From: Elusimicrobiota bacterium
GTDB lineage: Bacteria > Elusimicrobiota > Elusimicrobia > Elusimicrobiales > UBA9959
Length of the DNA: 64,000 nt
Reading direction: 5' to 3'
Assembly (NCBI GenBank): GCA_003482905.1
Contig: DMXM01000042.1
Coordinates: 2,398-66,397 of the forward strand
Part shown: positions 3 through 13,284 of the stretch, piece by piece
Position numbering within the stretch: the first letter of the stretch is position 1
Layout: every line of letters begins with the position of its first letter
Made by a program: the position numbers and the translations under genes
Notes under the pieces: generated by a model
Databases searched by the model: none
What the model was told of the DNA's origin: nothing
What the model saw: only the letters and a program-made list of their open reading frames with translations

Positions 3-1445
3 ATCACCTTCCATCCGGTAGAATTCGAAGGAACGAAGTGGATATTTAAAGAGGCCATAGTCGGCAATCTTTACGACCGGCCCCGGGCACAGGTCGATCA
101 CAATGTGCCCTTCATTTCCAACGGCGCGGAGCTGGGGCGGCTGGAGTATGTGATAGACCTGGTGGATGTGAACGCGGCGGTGTTCGGGCAGAACTACGTG
201 CTGTTCATAACCGTGGTGGTCTTCTTTATCGGCCTGCTGGCTCTTTCCAATGTGGGGGCCATAAAAACTATTTTCAGCATAGAACACTGCGTGGACGAGA
301 CCAACGCCCTGGTGGCCGCCGGCGAGCATTCTAAAATACAGGATTCCATACAGCGCAACATCGAGTCCCTGCCGCAAAGTCTGAGGAACACGCCTTTTGC
401 GGTGCTTATAAGCCGCCTCGCCGAGGTGCTTCAAAAAGCTTCCAGACTGGAAAGCGAGCTGGCGGTTTCAAAGGCCACGGCGGACCTGGCCGCGCAGGTG
501 GCGCACGATATACGATCGCCATTGGCGGCCTTGGGGGCGGCGGCCAAAGGGCTTGATCTGCCGGAAGAGCAACGCAAGCTTATTGAGGGCGCCGTGGGGC
601 GCATGCAGGGCATAGCCGATGACCTGCTCAACCGCTACCGCGCGCCTTCAGCCGCGCAAGCCAGGGCCAAGCCCGCGCCGCATGATTTGAGCGGCCTTAT
701 AGAACAGGTATTGGCCGAGAAACGGCTGCAGCACAAAGATAAAACCGGCGTTAATATAGAATTCAACAACGACGCCGGGCAATTAAAAGCCCTGGTGGAA
801 CCGAAAGAACTGCAGCGCCTGCTGTCCAACCTGGTAAACAACTCGGTTGAGGCTTTTGAAAACAACGGCACGGTGACCGTCGGCCTGTCTTCTACTGATG
901 GCAAGGTTTTAATAGAAGTTAAGGACAACGGCAAAGGCATCTTGCCGGAAATACTCGCGAAGCTCGGCCAAAAAGGCGAGACGCACGGAAAAGCCGGCGG
1001 TAACGGGCTTGGCCTTTATCACGCGGTCACCGCGGTTGAGAGCTGGGGCGGCAATTTAAGGCTGGAGTCAGTATTAGGCAGCGGCACTACCGTAACCATA
1101 GAGCTGCCGCGCGTAAAAGCCGCAGGGTCGGTAGGGCCTACAGTGCTGCTGGACGACGATATGCTGGTGCATATGAACTGGAAGATGGCCGCCAATGCGT
1201 CGGGGGCGGAATTTAAGGCCTATAAGACCCCGCAAGACTTTGCCGCGGGCATTTCTGATCTGTCCAAAGACGCGGCCATTTATATAGATTCGGAACTCGG
1301 CAACGATATTAAAGGCGAGGACATCGCCAAAGACCTGCACGAAAAAGGATTTTCCAATATAACCATGGCCACCGGCCACAGCCCAGAGCAATTCGCCCAC
1401 CTCCCCTGGCTTAAAGTAACCGGCAAAGAACCCCCCTGGGCATAG
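3..1445 (+). CDS. Hybrid sensor histidine kinase (TM, HisKA, HATPase_c, C-terminal receiver); probably 5'-truncated by the window edge
   Basis: H-box AHDIRSPLAAL; N-box NLVNNSVEAF; G1 DNGKGI; G2 GNGLGL. C-terminal REC-like segment VLLDDD...IYIDSELG...MATGH...GKEPP. The track start is GTG at 105, but the same frame has no stop back to nt 3 and reads as ordinary protein sequence. Confidence 0.85.
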   Translation: MTFHPVEFEGTKWIFKEAIVGNLYDRPRAQVDHNVPFISNGAELGRLEYVIDLVDVNAAVFGQNYVLFITVVVFFIGLLALSNVGAIKTIFSIEHCVDETNALVAAGEHSKIQDSIQRNIESLPQSLRNTPFAVLISRLAEVLQKASRLESELAVSKATADLAAQVAHDIRSPLAALGAAAKGLDLPEEQRKLIEGAVGRMQGIADDLLNRYRAPSAAQARAKPAPHDLSGLIEQVLAEKRLQHKDKTGVNIEFNNDAGQLKALVEPKELQRLLSNLVNNSVEAFENNGTVTVGLSSTDGKVLIEVKDNGKGILPEILAKLGQKGETHGKAGGNGLGLYHAVTAVESWGGNLRLESVLGSGTTVTIELPRVKAAGSVGPTVLLDDDMLVHMNWKMAANASGAEFKAYKTPQDFAAGISDLSKDAAIYIDSELGNDIKGEDIAKDLHEKGFSNITMATGHSPEQFAHLPWLKVTGKEPPWA

Positions 1446-1596: not shown

Positions 1597-1612
1597 TGGC
1601 ATAAGTATTGCT
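1597..1612 (+). promoter_or_regulatory. Sigma-54 (-24/-12) promoter
   Basis: TGGCAT-AAGTA-TTGCT matches TGGCAC-N5-TTGCW. The first ATG (1657) is about 45 nt downstream of the -12 element. The extended sequence TTGGCATAA..ATTGCTCT is shared with 5417 and 8142. Confidence 0.8.
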
Positions 1613-1656: not shown

Positions 1657-1749
1657 ATGAAGATAAAACTGATAAAAGATGTGGAGCGGCGCGGGATATT
1701 CTACGGGTCAAGGAATTTCTGCACTGGATTCTGTAATCTTAAGCTCTAA
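1657..1749 (+). CDS. 30-aa candidate RiPP precursor peptide MKIKLIKDVERRGIFYGSRNFCTGFCNLKL (not in the ORF track)
   Basis: GGAGG (1646-1650) lies 6 nt before the ATG. The TAA stop is immediately followed by the ATG of the radical SAM gene. The C-terminal FCTGFC motif sits in a small peptide next to a SPASM enzyme. Confidence 0.6.
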   Translation: MKIKLIKDVERRGIFYGSRNFCTGFCNLKL

Positions 1750-3093
1750 ATGGGCGCGGCTGGCAGATCCATGCCGGGAGCTGTGAGGCCCGGCATGGAT
1801 CAAAAAATGGACAATATGAAAAACCTAAAACCTTCCGTATACAATGAAACTATAAATGAGGGCGACAAAACTTACCTCTATAACTTTTACAGCGGCGCTA
1901 TTGTGGAAATGGAGGGTGGCGCGCAGTTGGAGGCAGCCGGAGTTTCCATGCAAGACGCAGCTTTGCTGAAAGAGAAAGGGTTCCTGGTGGATAAAAATAT
2001 TGACGAACTGAAGAGGTTGGAATTCTCGTATTTGTCCGGCAAGTTCAATAAAAGTTCTTTAGGGCTAACTCTTTGCACCACGCTCGAGTGCAATTTCAGC
2101 TGTCCTTATTGCTATGAAGGGAAGAGCCGGACCGGCTCGGCCATGAGCCCCGAAGTCATAACCAAGATTTTAGAATTCGTCCGGATGAAGCTGAAGGACA
2201 ACAACATAAACACACTGTACGTGAATTTCCTGGGCGGGGAAGCCCTGCTCAGGCTGGACGTACTCAGCGCGGTCCTGGCGGGCCTGAAAGCGGAGGCCGC
2301 GAGAAAGAACGTGGTGCTAGTTGCCGGGCTGGTAACCAACGGCTACTTGCTGGACGAGGCCATGAAAGTTATAGACATGCCGGGGGACATACAGAGTGTA
2401 CAGGTGACGTTCGACGGTTTTGGCGTCAGTCATGACAAGATGCGGCGGCTTGCAGGCGGTATAGGCAGCTTTGAACGGATATTCGCCAACATGGTACTTG
2501 CGCTGGAAAAAGGCGTGCGCGTCGCCGCCAGGTATAACCTGACCGGAGACAATGCCACCGACGCGACGCTGCTTATAGACAAGCTGGCCGGGCTTGAAAA
2601 AAAGCCGTTGCTCTACTTTGGGCATGTCAGCGCGGTCGGGAGTGCGGACACCTGCAAGTCCGTTTCCTGCATGAGCCGCATGGACTATTCTAAGGCGGAC
2701 CTAAAGCTGGCCCGGTATGCGGCGTCAAAAGGCGTAAAGACTGACTTCATGCCCGTCGGCAAGGGGAACTACTGCACTGCGGACGCGGTGAACGGGTTTA
2801 CCATAGACCCGGAGGGGGACATCTATAAATGCTGGAGTTCCGTAGGCAGAAAAGAATTAGCCTGCGGCAGCGTGCTGGTGGCCGCACCGGAAGAATGCAT
2901 AACCGACGAGAGCCGCTACTACATGTACACCATGGACAATCCTTTCCAGGATACCTGCGCGTCCTGCAAGCTGCTGCCTATCTGCATGGGCGGCTGCCCG
3001 GTAGAAAGACAGGCCGGTGGCAGGCAGTGCTCGAAATTTAAATTCCAGGACATGGAATTTATAAAATTATACACGGAAGGGGTTTTAAGATGA
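1750..3093 (+). CDS. Radical SAM / SPASM-domain peptide-modifying enzyme with an N-terminal ~90-aa extension (RRE-like)
   Basis: CNFSCPYC (CxxxCxxC). SPASM signature CTADAVNGFTIDPEGDIYKC (Cx13Gx4C) and CASCKLLPICMGGC (Cx2Cx5Cx3C). Alternative internal starts exist at 1795, 1807 and 1816. Confidence 0.9.
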   Translation: MGAAGRSMPGAVRPGMDQKMDNMKNLKPSVYNETINEGDKTYLYNFYSGAIVEMEGGAQLEAAGVSMQDAALLKEKGFLVDKNIDELKRLEFSYLSGKFNKSSLGLTLCTTLECNFSCPYCYEGKSRTGSAMSPEVITKILEFVRMKLKDNNINTLYVNFLGGEALLRLDVLSAVLAGLKAEAARKNVVLVAGLVTNGYLLDEAMKVIDMPGDIQSVQVTFDGFGVSHDKMRRLAGGIGSFERIFANMVLALEKGVRVAARYNLTGDNATDATLLIDKLAGLEKKPLLYFGHVSAVGSADTCKSVSCMSRMDYSKADLKLARYAASKGVKTDFMPVGKGNYCTADAVNGFTIDPEGDIYKCWSSVGRKELACGSVLVAAPEECITDESRYYMYTMDNPFQDTCASCKLLPICMGGCPVERQAGGRQCSKFKFQDMEFIKLYTEGVLR

Positions 3094-4313
3094 GAAACTT
3101 TTACTTTCTTTTTTTCGCACAGATGGTATCCCTCAGCGGTAGCGTGTTAAACTCGGTGGTTTCGATGTTCTGGGTTTACAGCATAACAGGCTCACTGTCT
3201 GGTTCTATACTCTCTGGCTTCTTTCCGGTAGCGGTGTACTTCCTGATCTCCACTTTCGCGGCCGCCATGGTGGAGCGGGGGAGTAAAAAGAATTACGTGC
3301 TCCTGGGCGAGGCCGCGCAGGCTTTGGTTTTCCTGGCGTTCTTTGTAATGGCCAAGTACGGGATAAAAAATATTTACGCTGTGTACGCCCTGCAGGGGAT
3401 AGTCGGCCTGGCGAGCGCTTTCTTCTCCCCGGCTATGGCGGCCTGGGAAATGGAATATATAAGGGATGTGTATCGCAAGATGGCCGGGAAGATTCACGCA
3501 GCCATGGCCGTACTAAACCTTTTATTCACGCTTGCCGGAGGCCTTCTGGCCGCCCGCGTGCCGTTCCATTACATCTTCCTCTACAACGCTGCTTCCTTCG
3601 GCGCGGCGTTCTTGATAGAGGTTTTTATCCGGGAGCCGGCGCGGGGTGCGCCTAAAGCGGAGGTGGCGGGCCGGACCCGCCTGCTTTCCGAAATGGCCGA
3701 GGGGTTTAGGTATGTAATCGCGGAAAAACCCGCGGTATTTTCCAGCATTCTGATGCTTTCAATGATAAATATGTTCTTCGCGCCGTTGGCCAACGTCATG
3801 CCGGTGTTTGTCAAGGCCGGGCTAAATCTCGGCCCAGACGCTTTCAGTTATGCCATGATTGCCAGCATGGCCGGGTCCATGGCCGCAGGGTTCTCTGTGA
3901 ATAAGGTTGGCCGATTGAACATTTCCATGCTCCTGCTTTTCTGCGTAGTGGACGCGGGATTGTGCTTTCTTATGTACTTCCTTACCGGCCTTGGCGCCCT
4001 ATTGCTGGTCATGATGGTGGTGGGATTCATCGTCAGCCTCATGACCATAGCGGTAAAGATAGAGGTCAGCACCGTAAAGCCCGAATATTACTGTAAGGTT
4101 CAGGCTCTCAGCGAGAACATTTCCGGTCTGCTGGTGCCGGTGGGAATAGTGATAATGTCGGTGCTGGCCGGTGCTGGCGGGGTGAGGACGCCATTCTTGT
4201 TCTCGGGCATCGCCCTGCTAGCGGTAGCGGGGCTGGTCAGGCTTCTGATATTCTCCGGCAGGTTCGGGAGGATCCTTGCCGCGCAAGGTTCCACGGCCTC
4301 GGGAGGGATATGA
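3090..4313 (+). CDS. MFS-type transporter (multi-TM), putative exporter
   Basis: About 12 hydrophobic segments across 407 aa. ATGA overlap with the radical SAM stop codon. Resembles MFS_3/EntS-like exporters in general architecture only. Confidence 0.7.
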   Translation: MRNFYFLFFAQMVSLSGSVLNSVVSMFWVYSITGSLSGSILSGFFPVAVYFLISTFAAAMVERGSKKNYVLLGEAAQALVFLAFFVMAKYGIKNIYAVYALQGIVGLASAFFSPAMAAWEMEYIRDVYRKMAGKIHAAMAVLNLLFTLAGGLLAARVPFHYIFLYNAASFGAAFLIEVFIREPARGAPKAEVAGRTRLLSEMAEGFRYVIAEKPAVFSSILMLSMINMFFAPLANVMPVFVKAGLNLGPDAFSYAMIASMAGSMAAGFSVNKVGRLNISMLLLFCVVDAGLCFLMYFLTGLGALLLVMMVVGFIVSLMTIAVKIEVSTVKPEYYCKVQALSENISGLLVPVGIVIMSVLAGAGGVRTPFLFSGIALLAVAGLVRLLIFSGRFGRILAAQGSTASGGI

Positions 4314-4512: not shown

Positions 4513-5241
4513 ATGGGGTATTTAGGGATCATAATGATATTTCTGGGAGGAAATTGTATGGCTACGAAAAACACTAATAATTGGGAATTCAAGGCGGCGG
4601 ATGTGGCGGTTATTCAGGTAGAGACCGATTCCGGCGAGGTGGTCCTGGAAGCGGCGGAGGGAGAGGTTATAAAGGTGGAAGTAACCGGAGAATATGATGC
4701 TGACAAATGCGAGGTTTCAGCTGCGCTCAGCGGCTCAAAACTTATGGCGTCGGCAAAGGGTAAAAAGAAATGGTTCTGGAACAGCGCCAACTGCAAAGCG
4801 GGTTTCAGGATCACCGCGCCAGCGGGAAAGAAACTGATAGTGAGATCCGGCGCCGGCAAGGCCGGGCTTGCCGGGTTTGCGGCGGGAGCGGATGTGTTTT
4901 CGGGCGCCGGAAGCATAGAATTCAAGGGTGTTTCCGGTCCGATAAGCGTCAAAAGCGGCGCGGGCACCATAAAAGGCGATATCTACTCTGAAGAATTCAG
5001 CGCCAGTGTCGGGGCTGGGGCCATCGATCTTTCCTGGAATAAGGCGCCTGAAAAAGGCAGGGCGGATATAAAAACCGGCGCCGGGGGAGTAACTCTGGCC
5101 TTCCCGGCCGATAGCAGAATAAACGTAAATTACAAGGCGGGCGTCGGGAATCTGAGCAATGAGCTTGGGAGTGATCCCTCGGCCGGGTTTAATGTGGATG
5201 TTAAAAGCGGCGCGGGCAGCCTTAGCATAAAGAAACGGTAG
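4513..5241 (+). CDS. DUF4097/LiaG-like beta-strand-repeat protein with a short hydrophobic N-terminus
   Basis: Repeated (V/I)K(S/T)GAG-x-(I/L/V) strands: VKSGAGTIKGD, VGAGAIDLSW, IKTGAGGVTLAF, VKSGAGSLSIKK. GGAGGA lies 7 nt before ATG 4513. An alternative start at 4558 also has an SD. Confidence 0.7.
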   Translation: MGYLGIIMIFLGGNCMATKNTNNWEFKAADVAVIQVETDSGEVVLEAAEGEVIKVEVTGEYDADKCEVSAALSGSKLMASAKGKKKWFWNSANCKAGFRITAPAGKKLIVRSGAGKAGLAGFAAGADVFSGAGSIEFKGVSGPISVKSGAGTIKGDIYSEEFSASVGAGAIDLSWNKAPEKGRADIKTGAGGVTLAFPADSRINVNYKAGVGNLSNELGSDPSAGFNVDVKSGAGSLSIKKR

Positions 5242-5417: not shown

Positions 5418-5433
5418 TGGCATAATAATTGCT
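5418..5433 (+). promoter_or_regulatory. Sigma-54 (-24/-12) promoter
   Basis: TGGCAT-AATAA-TTGCT. The first usable ATG downstream is 5474. Confidence 0.8.
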
Positions 5434-5764: not shown

Positions 5765-6331
5765 ATGAAGGATAGGATGAGAGCTGCGGGCGGGGTGATA
5801 TTGGCGGCGGCGGTTATTTTTGGCGCCGCCGCGGCGCGGGCTGAAATTGCCGTGGATATGCGCGGTGGCGGCCACATGCGGCTGGCTGCAGATGGTGGCG
5901 CGGCGCGCCGCGCCGCCCTGCTGGAAAATATTTCAGGCGCGGTGGACCGCCTGGCCGCCGCCGGGGATATGGCTGAAAAAGAAGTGCTGCTGGCCGGTTT
6001 ATACGCCGGTTCCACGCCGGCCGGGGCCGCCCCGGCGGTTAACGTAGAGGCCGTCCGCCTTCCGGCCGCAAGCGCGGCCAAGGCCGCGCCCGCCTCCGGG
6101 GCAAGGTCGGCCGTTGGGGAATTGGGTGCCGAAGCGCCGTCCGGCGCGGACGGTGAGGCGCCCGAGGTCTCTGGCGGGGAGCCCGAGGAGGATGAGGAGA
6201 CGGAGGCAGGTTATGCCTTCTCCGGATACCATGGCGCCGACGACGCCGATAAGCCGACCTTCGGCAGCATGCTGCTGGCCGCCGCCATAGGCCTGCTGGT
6301 GGTGGCTTTCTTCGTGCTGATACTGATCTAA
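5765..6331 (+). CDS. Ala/Gly/Glu-rich hypothetical protein with an N-terminal signal peptide and a C-terminal TM anchor
   Basis: N-terminus GGVILAAAVIFGAAAARA; acidic stretch GGEPEEDEETE; C-terminus MLLAAAIGLLVVAFFVLILI. GGAG SD before the ATG. Confidence 0.55.
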   Translation: MKDRMRAAGGVILAAAVIFGAAAARAEIAVDMRGGGHMRLAADGGAARRAALLENISGAVDRLAAAGDMAEKEVLLAGLYAGSTPAGAAPAVNVEAVRLPAASAAKAAPASGARSAVGELGAEAPSGADGEAPEVSGGEPEEDEETEAGYAFSGYHGADDADKPTFGSMLLAAAIGLLVVAFFVLILI

Positions 6332-6491
6332 GGGCTCGTCAAGAAATAACTGACACAATTTGAAGGCCCGTCTTTGGCCGATTCCTTCGTTGCTCCTCAC
6401 TCACAGACCGCCGGTATGCTCGTTCGTCGCGCCTCGGACTCGGCTCAAATCCAGACCCCCAAATCGCGCCATTTATTTCTTGACGAGCCCT
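6331..6491. repeat. 19-bp perfect inverted repeat bracketing a 123-bp spacer between convergent genes
   Basis: AGGGCTCGTCAAGAAATAA (6331-6349) is the exact reverse complement of 6473-6491. Both flanking stop codons touch the arms. Confidence 0.8.
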
Positions 6492-6669
6492 AAGCGGTTT
6501 TGCCCAGCGCCTGGACGGTCTTCGCTATCTCGTCGGCGGCCGCGGTCATAAGGGCCAGCATCTCTTTTTTTTCTCCGGCGGAGCAGTCCTTGTAAAGGTC
6601 CGCGGCGCTTTTGAGGCTGGCGCATTTGGATTTAAGGTCGTGCAGAAGTTTTGTGAGATCAGCGGTCAT
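6490..6669 (-). CDS. 59-aa helical ORF coupled to the activator gene; possible mini-HPt-like phosphotransfer protein (not in the ORF track)
   Basis: MTADLTKLLHDLKSKCASLKSAADLYKDCSAGEKKEMLALMTAAADEIAKTVQALGKTA. Its ATG overlaps the bEBP stop (ATGA at 6666-6669). LLHDLKSKCASL resembles the HPt H-x-L-K-G/S motif. Confidence 0.45.
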   Translation of the reverse strand: MTADLTKLLHDLKSKCASLKSAADLYKDCSAGEKKEMLALMTAAADEIAKTVQALGKTA

Positions 6670-8027
6670 TTCTTGTCCCCCGGCAGGGCTATTCCCAGTC
6701 TTTTAATGGTGGCGTAAAGCAGCCTGGTGGATATCTTCAGGTCCTCCAGGGTTTTTGTTTTCTTGCCGCCGTTCTCCCGCAGGTTCCTGGCTATTATCTC
6801 GCCAGAGATCTTTTCCAGGGCGGCTTCCAGGCCGCGTTTCAGCGCGTCGGTATAGACGGCATCCGGCCCGCCGGCCGCCTCCGGCGCGCGGCGGGGCGCG
6901 CCCTGGCCGCCCTTCAGATGCTTCTGCACGGTATCAAGGCCCACGCGGCCGCCCTCGCCGCTGGACAGCAGGTCTATGAATTTCTTAAGTTCGCGCACAT
7001 TGCCGGGCCAGGCGTAATCTTCCATCCAGGCGCGGGCCTCGGCGGTGAAAGACAGGCGCTTGCCGCCCTTGGTGAAATGCTGCGCCAGCAGGAACACGTC
7101 GGTTTTTCTGTCGGCCAGCGGTTTAAGGTTTATGGTGTAGCCGTGTACGCGCTGGAACAGGTCGAAGCGCATTTTCCCTTTGGCTATCAGGTCCTGCGGG
7201 TCTTCCAGCGTGGCGCTGATGACGCGGAACTCCGAGTGCTCCGGTTTCTCCGAACCCAGCGGGTAGAAAGAGCGCTCCTCTATGGCCTTGAGCAGTTTAG
7301 ACTGCATGCCCAGGCTCATGGCTCCTATCTCGTCCAGAAAAAGCGTGCCCTTATGGGCCTCCAGCAGGCGGCCCTTGCGGCTGTCCGCGGCCCCGGTGAA
7401 AGCGCCCTTCCTGTAGCCGAAGAGCTCGGCTTCCAGCAGGTCCTCGCCGTAGGCGGAGCAGTTTATGGCCACAAAGGCGCCCTCGCGGCCGGAATGTTCG
7501 TGCAGCACTTTCGCCAGGGAGGTCTTGCCGGTGCCCGACGGGCCAAGTATAAGGATGGGTAGTTCGGTGGGGGCGTATTTCAGGGCCTCGCCGGCGGCCG
7601 CCTTGGTTTCCGGGTCTCCGGTGATGAAGGCGGAGGTGAAAATATCCGTCGCGGCCGCGGCTTTCCTGTTCTGGAGGAACTTGCGCAGGATGTCCGCCAC
7701 GTTGGATTCCTCGTTGCCCTTAGAGTAGAAATCCCCGGCGCCCAGTTCGTACGCGCGGTCTATGATCTCGTCGGAATCGGAGCTGGAGACCACCACCGCG
7801 TAGACGTTCCTGGCCGCGGCGGCGGCTATGGCCCGCAGGCCCGAGTAATCGTCGTCAGGGCCCAGCATCAGGTCGAAGAATCCGAGGTCGTAGCGGTTGG
7901 CCTCTATCTTCTTCAGGGCGGTTTTTAGGTCCCCGGCCAGGTCCACGTTGTGGGCGGCCAGGCGGGAGGCCATTATCTTCTGCGCCAGTTTGTCGTCTTC
8001 AAGCACCAGTATGTTAAGTTTTTGCAT
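6666..8027 (-). CDS. Sigma-54-dependent response regulator (REC + AAA+ + Fis-type HTH; NtrC family bEBP)
   Basis: Receiver ILVLEDD...FFDLMLG. Walker A GPSGTGKT; GAFTGA loop (YRKGAFTGA); EAELFGY; Walker B LFLDEIG. C-terminal HTH LEDLKISTRLLYATIKRLGI. Confidence 0.95.
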   Translation of the reverse strand: MQKLNILVLEDDKLAQKIMASRLAAHNVDLAGDLKTALKKIEANRYDLGFFDLMLGPDDDYSGLRAIAAAAARNVYAVVVSSSDSDEIIDRAYELGAGDFYSKGNEESNVADILRKFLQNRKAAAATDIFTSAFITGDPETKAAAGEALKYAPTELPILILGPSGTGKTSLAKVLHEHSGREGAFVAINCSAYGEDLLEAELFGYRKGAFTGAADSRKGRLLEAHKGTLFLDEIGAMSLGMQSKLLKAIEERSFYPLGSEKPEHSEFRVISATLEDPQDLIAKGKMRFDLFQRVHGYTINLKPLADRKTDVFLLAQHFTKGGKRLSFTAEARAWMEDYAWPGNVRELKKFIDLLSSGEGGRVGLDTVQKHLKGGQGAPRRAPEAAGGPDAVYTDALKRGLEAALEKISGEIIARNLRENGGKKTKTLEDLKISTRLLYATIKRLGIALPGDKK

Positions 8028-8030
8028 TAT

Positions 8031-8066
8031 ATTCTCTTTTGAGAAAGATTATTTTCATTTGAAAAT
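8031..8066. promoter_or_regulatory. Degenerate copies of the enhancer half-sites, in the divergent region between the bEBP and sigma-54-like genes
   Basis: ATTCTCTTTTGAGAA (8031-8045) and TTTTCATTTGAAAAT (8052-8066), versus the consensus arms ATTCTCAAATGAAAA / TTTTCATTTGAGAAT. Confidence 0.5.
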
Positions 8067-8142
8067 ATTTACCCCGGCTACTATTATACAGAAATTGGGC
8101 CGGGCCTCGCTTTCATTGGCGGGTGGTCCGCGGCGCCGGGGT

Positions 8143-8158
8143 TGGCATAATAATTGCT
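8143..8158 (+). promoter_or_regulatory. Sigma-54 (-24/-12) promoter
   Basis: TGGCAT-AATAA-TTGCT, identical to the copy at 5418. ATG 8206 with a GAGGT SD lies about 48 nt downstream of the -12 element. Confidence 0.8.
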
Positions 8159-8205: not shown

Positions 8206-9258
8206 ATGAAATTTAAATTGAACGCGGCTGGCAGAACAAGGACTTCAACGGCGCTGATGGGCGCGCTTAAAATGGCGCATATGGCGGAAATGCCGGAGGA
8301 GGAGTTCGAGAAGGTTTTAAAGGAGCTGGAGGCCAGCCGGTTCTTTGCGCTGCTCAAGGCCTCGGGCGTAATAAACCTGGCCGAGTTCCCGGCCGCGCGT
8401 TACGCCGCCCGGAATTACGCCGGTTACGGCCTGAAGCTTTCCGGCGGCGACCTGCCGGAATTGGCCGACGGTAAAGGCGACCTGGTGGAAATAATACGGG
8501 GCATAGGGCAGGAAAAATTCGAGGCGTGCTTCCTGAGGGACGCGGTTATGAGCGACGTGGAGCGGGCGGAAGAATGCGACATTACGGTGGCCGACGCCGG
8601 GCGCCTGAGGGATTTTGTGAACCGGGCCTATATACAGGCGGAATTCGAGGGCGCGCCCGAGGCCCCGGCCGCGCAGGTGTACAGCGCGGTGGCCGGCATA
8701 GAGATAGAGGACGGCGCCCCGGTGCTGGCTTTCTTTCACCGCGAGATCTGGAAAGGCCGCTACAAGGTGGACGAGGAGAAACTGGCGCGGCTAACCGGGG
8801 ATCTGCCACCGGCCCAGCGTCAGGGGGTGGAGAAACTCCTTAAGCGCGTGGAGTTCGCCGACAAGCGCAAAACCACGCTTTACCGCGCGCTGGAGATACT
8901 GCTCAATATACAGACGGAATACCTGACTACCGGGGAGCCGGGCCGGCGCCGGCCGCTTTCGCAGAAAACGCTGGCGAAAAACCTGGAGGTGGACGCCAGC
9001 GTGCTCAACCGCCTGGTCTCGAATAAATCGGTGCAATTGCCCTGGGGAACCGAGGCGCCCATGAGCGTGCTGCTCCCCAGCGCCAAGCAGGTTAACCTGG
9101 AACGGCTTTATGCTATAGCCTCGGAGAATCCGGAACTGAGCGACGAAAAGCTGAAGGTGGAGCTGAAGGTGCGCCACGGGGTGGCGCTGTCCAGGCGGTC
9201 GGTGGCGCAGTACCGCAAGGATATGTCGCTGGCGGCCGGCGGTTCCAGGCGGCCCTAA
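8206..9258 (+). CDS. Short, divergent sigma-54 (RpoN) family protein, 350 aa
   Basis: C-terminal RpoN-box-like ALSRRSVAQYRKDM (canonical ARRTVAKYR). HTH region PLSQKTLAKNLEVDASVLNRLVSNKSVQLPWGTEAPMSVLL (canonical ...STVSRA..NKY..TP.G...LK.FF). N-terminus MKFKLN...L..L. The track start at 7897 overlaps the bEBP gene and the promoter, so it is rejected. Confidence 0.7.
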   Translation: MKFKLNAAGRTRTSTALMGALKMAHMAEMPEEEFEKVLKELEASRFFALLKASGVINLAEFPAARYAARNYAGYGLKLSGGDLPELADGKGDLVEIIRGIGQEKFEACFLRDAVMSDVERAEECDITVADAGRLRDFVNRAYIQAEFEGAPEAPAAQVYSAVAGIEIEDGAPVLAFFHREIWKGRYKVDEEKLARLTGDLPPAQRQGVEKLLKRVEFADKRKTTLYRALEILLNIQTEYLTTGEPGRRRPLSQKTLAKNLEVDASVLNRLVSNKSVQLPWGTEAPMSVLLPSAKQVNLERLYAIASENPELSDEKLKVELKVRHGVALSRRSVAQYRKDMSLAAGGSRRP

Positions 9259-9321
9259 AGTATTTGAACGTGGGTTTTAAAATTGCTAGAATGGTTATTC
9301 GGTCGGCAATGCCAGATTTAC

Positions 9322-9395
9322 GGGCCCGTAGCTCAGTTGGTTAGAGCAAACGACTCATAATCGTTGGGTCGAAGGTTCAAGTCCTTCCGGGCCCA
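9322..9395 (+). tRNA. tRNA with CAU anticodon (elongator Met, or Ile2 if lysidinylated)
   Basis: Cloverleaf: acceptor GGGCCCG/CGGGCCC, D stem GCTC/GAGC, anticodon stem AACGA/TCGTT with loop CTCATAA, T arm GAAGG-TTCAAGT-CCTTC. No encoded CCA. Confidence 0.95.
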
Positions 9396-9401
9396 GTATT
9401 T

Positions 9402-9437
9402 AAAAGGCCGTCCCTGCTAAAGGGACGGCCTTTTTTT
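9402..9437. terminator. Bidirectional rho-independent terminator
   Basis: GGCCGTCCCT-GCTAA-AGGGACGGCC flanked by AAAA and TTTTTTT. It sits between the tRNA and the convergent gene ending at 9457. Confidence 0.85.
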
Positions 9438-9456
9438 CATGGATAGGGACGCCGAG

Positions 9457-11043: not shown

Positions 11044-11921
11044 AAACCAAAAGACAGATAATCAAGATAGACGAGCGGTTATGCGACGGCTGCGGCAATT
11101 GCGTGACCGGCTGCCATGAGGGCGCGCTGCAGGTGATAGACGGAAAGGCCCGCCTGATCAGCGACCTGCTCTGCGACGGCCTGGGCGCCTGCATAGGCGA
11201 ATGCCCCCGCGGCGCTATAAAAATAGAGGAGCGCCAGGCCGAGCCCTACGACGAGGTTAAAGTGATGGAGGGCATGGTAAAACACGGGGCCAACACCATA
11301 AAGGCCCACCTTAAACATCTTAAAGACCACGCGCAGAAAACGTTTTTAAATCAGGCCTTTGATTACCTGAAACAGCATAACATTCCCAATCCAATGGAGG
11401 AAGAAAAAGACATGTCAAAAGATAAAGAGAGCAAACACAAGCACGGCGGCCACGAACCCTGCGGCTGCCCCGGCGGGCGGACCATGGACCTGCGCGAAAC
11501 CTGCGGCTGCGAAGAAGGGACCGGCGATCCCGCCGCCAAGTCCCAACTGCGCCAGTGGCCGGTGCAGCTGCATCTGGCCTCCCCCATGGCGCCCTACTTC
11601 GAAAAGGCCGATGTGGTAATAGCCGCGGACTGCACGGCTTACGCCTACGGCAACTTTCACAACGATTTCATAAAAGGAAAAGCCATAGTTATCGCCTGCC
11701 CCAAACTTGACGACGGCCAGGAGATCTACGCCGAAAAGATCCAGGCGCTGATCGAGGACGCCAAGGTGAACACGCTCACCGTGGTCACCATGGAAGTGCC
11801 CTGCTGCAACGGCCTGCTGGCCATGGTAAAGACCGCCGCCGCGGCTGCCGGCCGCAAAGTGCCCATAAAGCACGTGGTCATAGGCATACAGGGCGGCATA
11901 AAGAGCGAGGCTTGGGCGTAA
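11040..11921 (+). CDS. 4Fe-4S dicluster domain protein with a His/Cys-rich linker and a conserved C-terminal domain
   Basis: CDGCGNCVTGC and CDGLGACIGECP ferredoxin motifs. Linker HKHGGHEPCGCPGG...ETCGCEEG. C-terminus ACPKLDD...MEVPCCNGL. ATGA overlap with the Rrf2 stop. Confidence 0.8.
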   Translation: MKTKRQIIKIDERLCDGCGNCVTGCHEGALQVIDGKARLISDLLCDGLGACIGECPRGAIKIEERQAEPYDEVKVMEGMVKHGANTIKAHLKHLKDHAQKTFLNQAFDYLKQHNIPNPMEEEKDMSKDKESKHKHGGHEPCGCPGGRTMDLRETCGCEEGTGDPAAKSQLRQWPVQLHLASPMAPYFEKADVVIAADCTAYAYGNFHNDFIKGKAIVIACPKLDDGQEIYAEKIQALIEDAKVNTLTVVTMEVPCCNGLLAMVKTAAAAAGRKVPIKHVVIGIQGGIKSEAWA

Positions 11922-12018
11922 AGAGACGCCGCAAGGTCAGGGATAAAGGCCTTTCCAGTCCCTGGCGGGGCGGCATTTAATTGAGAAAGCGGCTGGATTT
12001 TTGATAAGATATTTTTAC

Positions 12019-12090
12019 GGTGCGGTGGCCAAGTGGTAAGGCGAGAGTCTGCAAAACTCTTATTCGTGGGTTCGATTCCCACCCGCACCT
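12019..12090 (+). tRNA. tRNA-Cys (GCA)
   Basis: Acceptor GGTGCGG/CCGCACC with discriminator T. Anticodon stem AGAGT/ACTCT with loop CTGCAAA. T arm GTGGG-TTCGATT-CCCAC. Confidence 0.95.
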
Positions 12091-12123
12091 TAAAAATTTT
12101 CGGTGAAGTGCCCGCTTTCACCT

Positions 12124-13284
12124 ATGAACCTCAGCAGACTTGCCCTCTCCCTCGGCCAATCGGCCACCCTTAAGTTGAACGAATTAGCCAACAACCTTAA
12201 AGCCGAGGGCAAGCCCGTCATCCACCTGGGCGGCGGCGAACCCGAGGAAAAAATACCCAGCGGAGCTTTCGAGGAAAGCCGCAAAATGCTGGACGGCGGG
12301 TTTGTGCGCTACACTCCCGTCTCCGGCACGGCCCCCCTTAAAAAAGAGATAGCCGCCTACACCGAGGCTTATTACGGCGTAAAACCCGGCCCAAAGAACA
12401 TAGTGGTGGCCTCCGGGGCCAAGCAGGCCATTTACAATTTTTTAATTTCAGTGGTGGACCCGGGCGACCAGGTGATCTTCCCCGCGCCTTACTGGGTGAG
12501 CTACCCGGAAATGGTGCGCCTGGCCTACGGCCTGCCGGTTATAGTGCGCCCGCCCAAAGGCGAGCTGCTGGTTTCAGCCGCCGACATCGAGGCCCATCTT
12601 ACCAGCCGCACCAAAGCCATACTGCTCAACAGTCCCAATAACCCTTCCGGCCAGGTATATAGCGAAGACTTCGTGCGCGAAATGGTGGAGATCTGCGAAC
12701 ACCGCAATATCTACCTGCTCATGGACGACATCTACAACCGCCTGGTGTTCGACGGCCAGAAAGCCCCGTCGGCCTTTAATTTCTCCAAGCGGCCCCTGAA
12801 CGAGTCCATTATCGTCTCAATAAACGGCGTGTCCAAGACTTTCTCCATGACCGGCTACCGCATAGGCTGGAGCGTGGCCAACGAGGCCCTGACCCAGGCC
12901 ATGGTAAAAGTGCAGGCGCAGGTCTCTTCCTGCCCGTCGGCGCTCAGCCAGGCCGCCGCGGCCGGGGCGCTGCGCGAAGGGAACGGCTTTGTGGAAGCCC
13001 TGCGCGCGGGGCTCGAGAAAAAGCGCGACGTGATGGTGGCCGAGCTCTCCAAATTTAAAAAGGTGAAACTTAACGCGCCGCAGGGGACTTTCTACAGTTT
13101 TCCGGATTTCAGCGCCTACGAGCCCGACTCGACCAGGCTTTCTAATATGCTGCTGGAAAAAGCCATGGTGGTGACGGTGCCGGGCGTGGAGTTCGGCCTG
13201 GAAGGCCACCTGCGCCTGAGCTACTGCGGCTCGGAAGCCGACATAGTGGAAGGCGTTTCCCGTATCCGTAAAATACTGGACTGA
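12124..13284 (+). CDS. Class I pyridoxal-phosphate-dependent aminotransferase (aspartate aminotransferase-like)
   Basis: PLP-lysine motif SKTFSMTGYRIGW; NSPNNPSG. The track start (GTG 12103) is only 13 nt after the tRNA, so ATG 12124 (MNLSRLAL...) is preferred. Confidence 0.85.
   Translation: MNLSRLALSLGQSATLKLNELANNLKAEGKPVIHLGGGEPEEKIPSGAFEESRKMLDGGFVRYTPVSGTAPLKKEIAAYTEAYYGVKPGPKNIVVASGAKQAIYNFLISVVDPGDQVIFPAPYWVSYPEMVRLAYGLPVIVRPPKGELLVSAADIEAHLTSRTKAILLNSPNNPSGQVYSEDFVREMVEICEHRNIYLLMDDIYNRLVFDGQKAPSAFNFSKRPLNESIIVSINGVSKTFSMTGYRIGWSVANEALTQAMVKVQAQVSSCPSALSQAAAAGALREGNGFVEALRAGLEKKRDVMVAELSKFKKVKLNAPQGTFYSFPDFSAYEPDSTRLSNMLLEKAMVVTVPGVEFGLEGHLRLSYCGSEADIVEGVSRIRKILD

Follow-up and report, generated by a model that had tools for sequence, protein, structure and literature searches.

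This locus raises the question of how a hybrid histidine kinase and a sigma-54 activator, each of which carries a receiver, might be joined to one another, and what part is played by a protein of only 59 residues whose gene follows that of the activator. The genes lie in a stretch of 64,000 nucleotides from an Elusimicrobiota bacterium (contig DMXM01000042.1); this whole stretch is called the window below, and coordinates without a locus name are those of the window. An earlier note on the same DNA had read the small protein as a minimal histidine-containing phosphotransfer (HPt) domain, the missing link of a phosphorelay from the kinase to the activator. The genes concerned are the following.

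6490..6669, minus strand: small gene of 59 residues, predicted free-standing DHp/HisKA-like helical hairpin (translation, homologues, AlphaFold2 (AF2), hhalign and substitution rates)
6666..8027, minus strand: sigma-54 activator, a bacterial enhancer-binding protein (bEBP), with receiver (REC), AAA+ (GAFTGA) and lid (REC, Sigma54_activat and AAA lid by Pfam; GAFTGA read from the sequence)
8206..9258, plus strand: compact, divergent sigma-54 gene, ~350 residues (Pfam Sigma54_DBD, E 4e-15)
3..1445, plus strand: hybrid histidine kinase, cut at the 5' end of the window, with HisKA, HATPase_c and a C-terminal truncated receiver (Pfam, AF2, Foldseek)
1140..1442, plus strand: receiver-like tail of this kinase, with DDD, Y-I-D, A-T-G-H and G-K-E-P-P-W, ending after beta5 (alignment, AF2, Foldseek)

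From conservation, homology and gene context, our judgement leans, by a modest degree, towards a dimeric, Spo0B/ChpT-like phosphotransferase reduced to the dimerisation and histidine phosphotransfer (DHp) domain alone, which would serve between the hybrid kinases and the activator. The simplest reading of a locus that keeps together a sigma-54 factor, an activator with a phosphorylatable receiver, a DHp with its His and a hybrid kinase would be a His-Asp-His-Asp relay, in which the small protein would be the carrier at the second His. Of the earlier proposal, the functional half stands, a His link from the hybrid kinase to the receiver of the activator being best supported by context, namely gene linkage and co-occurrence; the structural half, a minimal HPt, does not.

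The small gene and its partners

The open reading frame (ORF) and its peptide are present at 6490-6669 exactly as quoted in the earlier note, on the minus strand. The TGA that ends the activator gene and the ATG of the small gene share bases, reading ATGA, and a Shine-Dalgarno-like GGGGGA run is located 8-13 nt upstream of this ATG. Of 50 copies examined, 33 retain the 4-nt junction with the activator, and the remainder are mostly spaced by -20 to +14 nt. A word-indexed search identified 59 homologues of 58-63 residues with 64-86% identity (alignment A1); those with a named source are all from Elusimicrobia, and most of the entries are unnamed or 'hypothetical'. Eighteen columns of A1 are invariant, including L8, L9, H10, D11, S14, C16 and C29. 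The ratio of nonsynonymous to synonymous substitution rates (dN/dS), calculated for 33 locus pairs, has a median of 0.117, the median dS being 0.97. The small ORF is a real gene under purifying selection, far beyond a chance frame.

By a profile search that covered 1.84 billion representatives exhaustively, the family was extended to 74 representatives at E<=1e-3 (alignment A2). All but four of them are 51-83 residues in length, three are of 99-144 residues and one is of 943 residues; since nearly all of the matches are short, the DHp-like domain of the small gene is essentially never fused to another domain. The 943-residue entry (P0133, matched in seven stretches) is a leucine-rich-repeat protein and was discarded as a spurious family match. 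In one entry of 105 residues (P0081), the first ~48 residues of an activator-type receiver are joined directly to the DHp hairpin, possibly as the result of a deletion or an assembly artefact. An Atlas look-up returned Acidobacteriota clusters of 63 residues, one of them with HisKA on 12% of its members, which are leads only. One Verrucomicrobiales match (L034; 22 residues, 55% identity, E 1e-3), which gave no matches in its gene context, was dropped as probably spurious.

The small gene was observed in three gene orders. Among the 33 Elusimicrobia loci, the activator gene is directly upstream of it in 31 and the sigma-54 gene is divergent in 30, the exceptions being contig ends; conservation downstream of orthologous activators, a check that the earlier note had proposed, is seen in these loci. 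A distant clade is represented by 15 metagenome loci, found with the 10-member alignment A4, in which the activator, small gene and sigma-54 gene are co-directional, with overlapping stops and starts. Here the activator is upstream in 14 loci and sigma-54 downstream in 11; identity is 35-56% for the small protein and 54-61% for the activator where it is full-length. The third order is found in genome G092 (L059, G092:C19, 5721-8641, minus strand), where the hybrid kinase, the small gene and the compact sigma-54 gene are co-directional and the activator is 3.6 kb off on the other strand. Two further loci are unusual in arrangement: L026 contains a second, divergent pair of activator and small gene (11085-12165), the small protein of which is 42% identical, and in the metagenome locus L053 (3276-6223) the same genes are mirrored on both strands, probably owing to a palindromic assembly artefact.

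The source genome is 2.5 Mb in size and 92% complete. It contains a single copy of the small gene, and a search of all genome ORFs with the family profiles (hmmsearch) gave no significant second copy or kinase match. The compact sigma-54 gene, which is transcribed divergently from the activator, is the sole Sigma54_DBD match in the genome; its start at ATG 8206 was placed from the sequence and from the positions at which homologue alignments begin. The activator is the only clear bEBP (one strong and one weak match in a genome census). The small gene, the sole Sigma54_DBD match and the sole clear activator of the genome are all adjacent. That the activator begins with a receiver, as the earlier note had claimed, agrees with the Pfam REC match and with D11, D12, D52 and K103, which are invariant in 36 orthologues.

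The kinase is located ~5 kb from the small gene on the opposite strand and is not adjacent to it. Its last 110 residues have no Pfam match even at E<=10, Response_reg included. The AF2 model of this tail, with a predicted local distance difference test score (pLDDT) of 91, is a receiver without alpha5, and all matches listed by Foldseek are receiver domains with a probability of 1.00 each (best 1s8n, E 9.8e-4). DDD, Y-x-D, A-T-G and G-K are conserved across 15 aligned tails. Because the C-terminal tail matches the receiver fold, the kinase at 3-1445 is a hybrid, and its DDD...D...T...K features had been read correctly before. Four tail-bearing paralogues are present in the genome, on contigs C3 (the window), C24 (two sites) and C31; all four have the H-box V-A-H-D-I-R-S-P-L-A-A-L, which marks one DHp subtype, and an alpha5-less tail that ends in G-K-E-P-P-W. 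The source genome thus has four tail-bearing kinases, versus one small gene, one activator and one sigma-54 gene, and its relatives carry one to five such kinases.

A kinase with the same receiver tail was found inside the fetched flank in 8 of the 33 Elusimicrobia loci and in 4 of the 15 metagenome loci. Co-occurrence was also analyzed in 151 genomes of the phylum, which were sampled evenly. The small gene is present in eight of these genomes, and seven of the eight also possess the kinase tail (E<=1e-30). None of the 143 genomes without the small gene has the tail at this threshold; one weak match (5e-11) was observed.

Fold and family of the small protein

The candidate phospho-site of the small protein is His10, within the motif K-L-L-H-D-L-K-S-K-C. 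This His is kept in 59 of 59 members of A1, in 30 of 30 members of alignment A3 and in 72 of the 74 representatives of A2. In A2, position H+1 is Asp or Glu in 59 and position H+4 is Ser in 66 of the 74 sequences. Locus L009 contains, at 9319-9450, a further copy of the small gene that is truncated and has Arg instead of the His. The idea that the two Cys residues invariant in the close clade make up a metal or redox site was considered and, as a general feature, set aside: in A2, Cys16 is present in only 51 of 74 sequences, and conservation of Cys29 is limited to the close clade.

The AF2 model of the small protein is an antiparallel two-helix hairpin (pLDDT 91), with helices at residues 3-26 and 31-58. 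The commonest Pfam match is HisKA (PF00512, cut-off 26.9 bits), found for 31 of the 59 close members (best E 0.0028) and for 25 of the 74 wider ones (best E 5.2e-6), single members being below or near the thresholds. Profile-profile comparison by hhalign was performed with 26 kinase H-box regions of the source genome, a selected set that was picked by an H-box regular expression. A2 aligned with them at 88.6% probability (P 2.7e-6) over 54 columns, placing the His on the phospho-His, and A1 at 73% (P 3.1e-5); the reversed-sequence controls reached 0.5-0.6%. The best sub-threshold matches of the family profile in the genome are likewise kinase H-boxes, that of the linked kinase included, and the His always falls on the phospho-His. 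An iterative search that started from the DHp of the linked kinase converged on the four paralogues, and the small gene was not pulled in.

NCBIfam returned two weak matches only, both with E 0.015, to the DHp region of ChpT and to the C-terminus of TorS. With a score of 14.8 bits against the ChpT model, far under the cut-off of 225, the small protein is not a member of the ChpT family. Some JGI records of 65-residue relatives carry the name 'signal transduction histidine kinase'. Like the HisKA kinases, the small protein has the common H-box register (H-D-L-K-S versus H-D-I-R-S-P-L), and the hairpin length, the loop and the pattern of the second helix match as well. Different from these kinases, it is never fused to a CA domain (the part for catalysis and ATP binding), and the H-box of its family reads H-D-(L/V/I)-x-S-K-C, Lys-Cys replacing the Pro-Leu of the kinases. 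One further idea, that the small protein represents the missing N-terminal region of the compact sigma-54, was rejected, as the sequence is DHp-like by hhalign.

Taken together, the profile comparisons and the model indicate that the small protein is a free-standing DHp (HisKA-type) hairpin, homologous to the DHp of kinases and without a sensor, an ATP-binding or a CA-like domain. DHp hairpins act as dimeric four-helix bundles, and by analogy the small protein would form a dimer. The caveat in the earlier note, that a version this short would need to form dimers or else be something different altogether, pointed the right way.

The same data bear on the minimal canonical HPt domain (PF01627) that the earlier note had in mind. 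The stretch H-D-L-K-S-K-C-A-S-L is superficially like the HPt motif, as the earlier note had pointed out, and the weak TorS match, which falls in the C-terminal region, counts in favour of this reading. However, the Pfam Hpt model matches 0 of the 59 members at E<=10, and Hpt is missing among the 25 listed of the 84 Pfam families that were matched by the 74 wider members. Compared by hhalign to the four HPt domains of the genome, a thin profile of only four sequences, A2 and A1 gave 0.6% and 1.5%, respectively, with His off His. A monomeric four-helix HPt bundle is of roughly 100-120 residues; the small protein has 59 residues and two helices. The four Hpt domains of the source genome score 36.7-54.6 bits, above the 24.6-bit cut-off of Pfam, and because these canonical domains are so easily recognized, a true HPt would have been detected. 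The HPt reading is contradicted by these results, and the probability that we leave to it is close to negligible.

A free canonical HPt of 99 residues is in fact encoded elsewhere in the same genome (L039, C35:196736-199966), directly downstream of a hybrid kinase with two receivers. This pair is a separate, conventional phosphorelay. The canonical HPt has the same job, that of the second His, as is proposed for the small protein; the fold and the family are different.

The proposed relay and its alternatives

In the relay as we propose it, one of the several paralogous hybrid kinases would autophosphorylate, and its own truncated receiver at the C-terminus, which we propose as the intermediate Asp site, would take over the phosphate. 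The phosphate would then pass from the kinase receiver to His10 of the small protein, and from the small protein to Asp52 in the receiver of the single sigma-54 activator of the genome. The activator would in turn drive the compact sigma-54 at the nearby TGGCATAA-N4-TTGC promoters, which would serve the sigma-54 gene itself as well as a cluster with a peptide maturase and one gene of unknown function. In this scheme we infer the phosphorylation of His10, the direction of the transfer and the identity of the partners. The alpha4-beta5-alpha5 face is argued in PMC9981736 to be dispensable in the intermediary receivers of hybrid kinases; for this reason the alpha5-less kinase tail would, in our own interpretation, suit an intermediary receiver.

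The complex of two copies of the small protein with the activator's REC domain was predicted, and scored 0.47, versus 0.00 for the best of three controls. The runs agree in at least 87% of the contacts, and the pLDDT of the partner is at least 80. In the calibration, 116 of 157 solved complexes attained the mark, as did 2 of 215 mismatched pairs; of the solved complexes only 18 attained it with a score of 0.60 or under, the range in which both of the passing mismatches lie. Our job differs from the calibration in its custom alignments and its three chains, and only the receiver partner was scored. Because DHp-receiver complexes have already been solved, the pass may reflect likeness only.

Several known systems are close to the one proposed. 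Phosphotransferases are described in PMC9981736 as HPt proteins or DHp-bearing pseudo-kinases such as ChpT. Like the protein proposed here, ChpT of Caulobacter and Brucella and Spo0B of Bacillus are reported to carry the phospho-His on a DHp hairpin, to form a dimeric four-helix bundle and to shuttle phosphate from receiver to receiver (PMC9981736, PMC3433190). Compared to these proteins, which are ~200 residues in size and contain a degenerate CA-like alpha/beta domain, the small protein is much shorter and ends after the second helix. In Vibrio, luxU is located directly downstream of luxO in one operon, which is the order seen here; LuxU is ~114 residues in length and is a monomeric HPt four-helix bundle, whereas the small protein is of DHp type and half that length. 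The layout is otherwise the same: three hybrid kinases, LuxN, LuxQ and CqsS, are described as feeding LuxU and then the sigma-54 activator LuxO (PMC5394107), so that in both cases many kinases would converge on one small carrier and one REC-AAA+ sigma-54 activator. Different from the Vibrio relay, the sigma-54 of our system is a compact, divergent form that is encoded beside the module. RedE of Myxococcus xanthus offers another likeness, since it is a sensor-less, kinase-like protein whose His24 is reported to accept phosphate from a receiver, that of RedD, rather than from ATP, and which also dephosphorylates RedF-P (PMC2755868). However, RedE keeps a catalytic-type domain, is an ADP-dependent phosphatase and has no link to sigma-54.

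A number of observations weigh against the relay. The similarity to HisKA is weak for single members, and the protein of the window itself (P0001) has no HisKA match. Neither the single protein nor the A1 profile gave anything relevant when searched against PDB sequences, the sole match being an aminotransferase at E 1.3. Foldseek aligned the hairpin with generic hairpins at E>0.5, HK853 being at rank 28 and ChpT at ranks 33-34, and is uninformative here because the fold is so simple. The known DHp-type phosphotransferases, Spo0B and ChpT, keep a CA-like domain, and the small protein is without one. In two of the 74 representatives, P0090 and P0134, the position of the His is taken by Gly or Cys, from which it follows that at least some members of the family work without it or are degenerate. 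The score of the predicted complex is a weak pass only. As for co-occurrence, one genome (G128, in 240 contigs) has the small gene and no kinase tail was found in it, its contig ending near the module; in addition, the genomes that show the co-occurrence are related to one another (7 genera from 4 families), and the profile therefore counts few independent events. Finally, a role as a phosphatase or phosphate sink fits the gene context equally well.

As a DHp-type phosphatase or sink, the hairpin dimer would dock on the receiver of the activator or of the kinase and drain its phosphate. This role shares with the relay the DHp homology, the conserved H-D, the Ser at H+4 and the gene linkage, and HisKA kinases in their phosphatase state, or RedE, would be comparable to it. 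The two His-less members fit a function that does not strictly need the His, and the in vitro phosphatase activity of RedE is reported not to have needed its His either (PMC2755868). The same account states that this activity needed ADP or ATP (PMC2755868), whereas the small protein has no nucleotide-binding domain. Moreover, a kinase receiver tail without an output face still needs a route to the activator, for which the cluster offers no other candidate, and a His so nearly invariant (72 of 74) speaks for an intermediate with phospho-His. We consider the phosphatase or sink unlikely, although it deserves to be kept in mind. The split kinase is another way to account for a conserved His on a DHp hairpin: the small protein would be its phospho-acceptor half, phosphorylated in trans by a separately encoded CA domain. 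Split CheA proteins provide a precedent for the trans-phosphorylation of separate His modules. However, no CA-only gene was seen in the clusters examined, and the linked kinases have a complete DHp and CA of their own, which makes a split kinase very improbable.

A protein-binding role without phosphoryl transfer would be served either by an anti-activator or adaptor on the AAA+ domain of the activator or on the compact sigma-54, or by a dominant-negative hairpin that enters mixed bundles and blocks the DHp of the kinase. The translational coupling to the activator is consistent with such a role, and so is the distant clade, which places the small gene between the activator and sigma-54. The H-box and the loop resemble those of the linked kinase, and the two members without His are readily accommodated. 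In NifL, which is described as an anti-activator that acts on a bEBP and resembles a kinase in its DH and GHKL domains (PMC12998190), the dimerisation helices help to hold NifA. Pure binding would, however, leave unexplained a near-invariant and presumably exposed His with an acidic residue adjacent to it, as well as the tight co-occurrence with one family of receiver-tailed kinases; and the sole binding prediction, against the REC domain of the activator, gave a weak pass. We rate this role as somewhat less likely still than the phosphatase or sink. Phosphate transfer by the small protein from hybrid kinase to activator is the reading that we favour.

Promoters, neighbouring genes and wider meaning

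Three near-identical sigma-54-type promoters are present in the window, at 1597, 5418 and 8143, all on the plus strand. These and the genes around them are listed below.

1597..1611, plus strand: sigma-54-type promoter TGGCATAAGTATTGC, preceding the 30-codon ORF, the radical-SAM/SPASM maturase and the major facilitator superfamily (MFS) gene
1657-1749: 30-codon ORF with two Cys, with the plus-strand promoter at 1597 upstream (by eye)
1750-3093: radical-SAM/SPASM peptide maturase behind the 1597 promoter (best NCBIfam matches of the Clo7bot and TIGR04463 types, below cut-off)
3090-4313: MFS transporter gene behind the 1597 promoter (family searches)
5418..5432, plus strand: sigma-54-type promoter TGGCATAATAATTGC, preceding the plus-strand ORF(s) convergent on the small gene
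5765..6331, plus strand: conserved ORF of 188 residues, convergent with the small gene (no family match in Pfam or NCBIfam)
8143..8157, plus strand: sigma-54-type promoter TGGCATAATAATTGC, preceding the sigma-54 gene itself

From its sequence, the region 1657-4313 looks like a sigma-54-controlled cluster for a ribosomally synthesized and post-translationally modified peptide. At the end of the maturase cluster, the ORF at 4513-5241 has weak similarity to LiaG and DUF4097 ('toastrack'), and its homologues are near the module in many related loci. AT-rich palindromes of the TTTTCATTTGAGAA...TTCTCAAATGAAAA type were noticed by eye upstream of sigma-54 promoters, at 1490-1540 and 8036-8070, and are candidate binding sites of the activator. 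The 188-residue ORF recurs at the equivalent place in L001, L003, L005, L020 and L023, as detected by tblastn. A perfect inverted repeat of 19 bp is formed by positions 6329-6347 and 6474-6492, its arms overlapping the stops of the two convergent genes. The spacer is ~125 nt in length, and over 92 nt a part of it shares 78% identity with a site on contig C13 of this genome; the repeat and its spacer have no Rfam or tRNA match.

In the literature searched we found no description of a natural phosphorelay protein that consists of a DHp alone, which is not proof that none has been published. DHp-type carriers as such are already known; what would be new here is a DHp-type phosphotransferase stripped to its hairpin. 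It is possible, and we put it forward tentatively, that such proteins constitute a third structural class of His-phosphotransferases, in which a dimerising DHp hairpin of ~60 residues would connect the alpha5-less receivers of several paralogous kinases to the one activator of a compact sigma-54, within a self-contained and self-activating four-gene module that is spread in Elusimicrobia and at least one other phylum.

If the relay reading is true, a natural carrier that consists of a DHp hairpin would show the catalytic-like domain to be dispensable, and the small protein would be the smallest phosphorelay protein known, as well as the smallest natural scaffold for studying and engineering the specificity between DHp domains and receivers. 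A class of relay proteins overlooked by genome censuses that rely on domains would also come to light, their genes being annotated as 'hypothetical' or mislabelled. For this organism, the small protein would be the single entry point to all sigma-54-dependent transcription.

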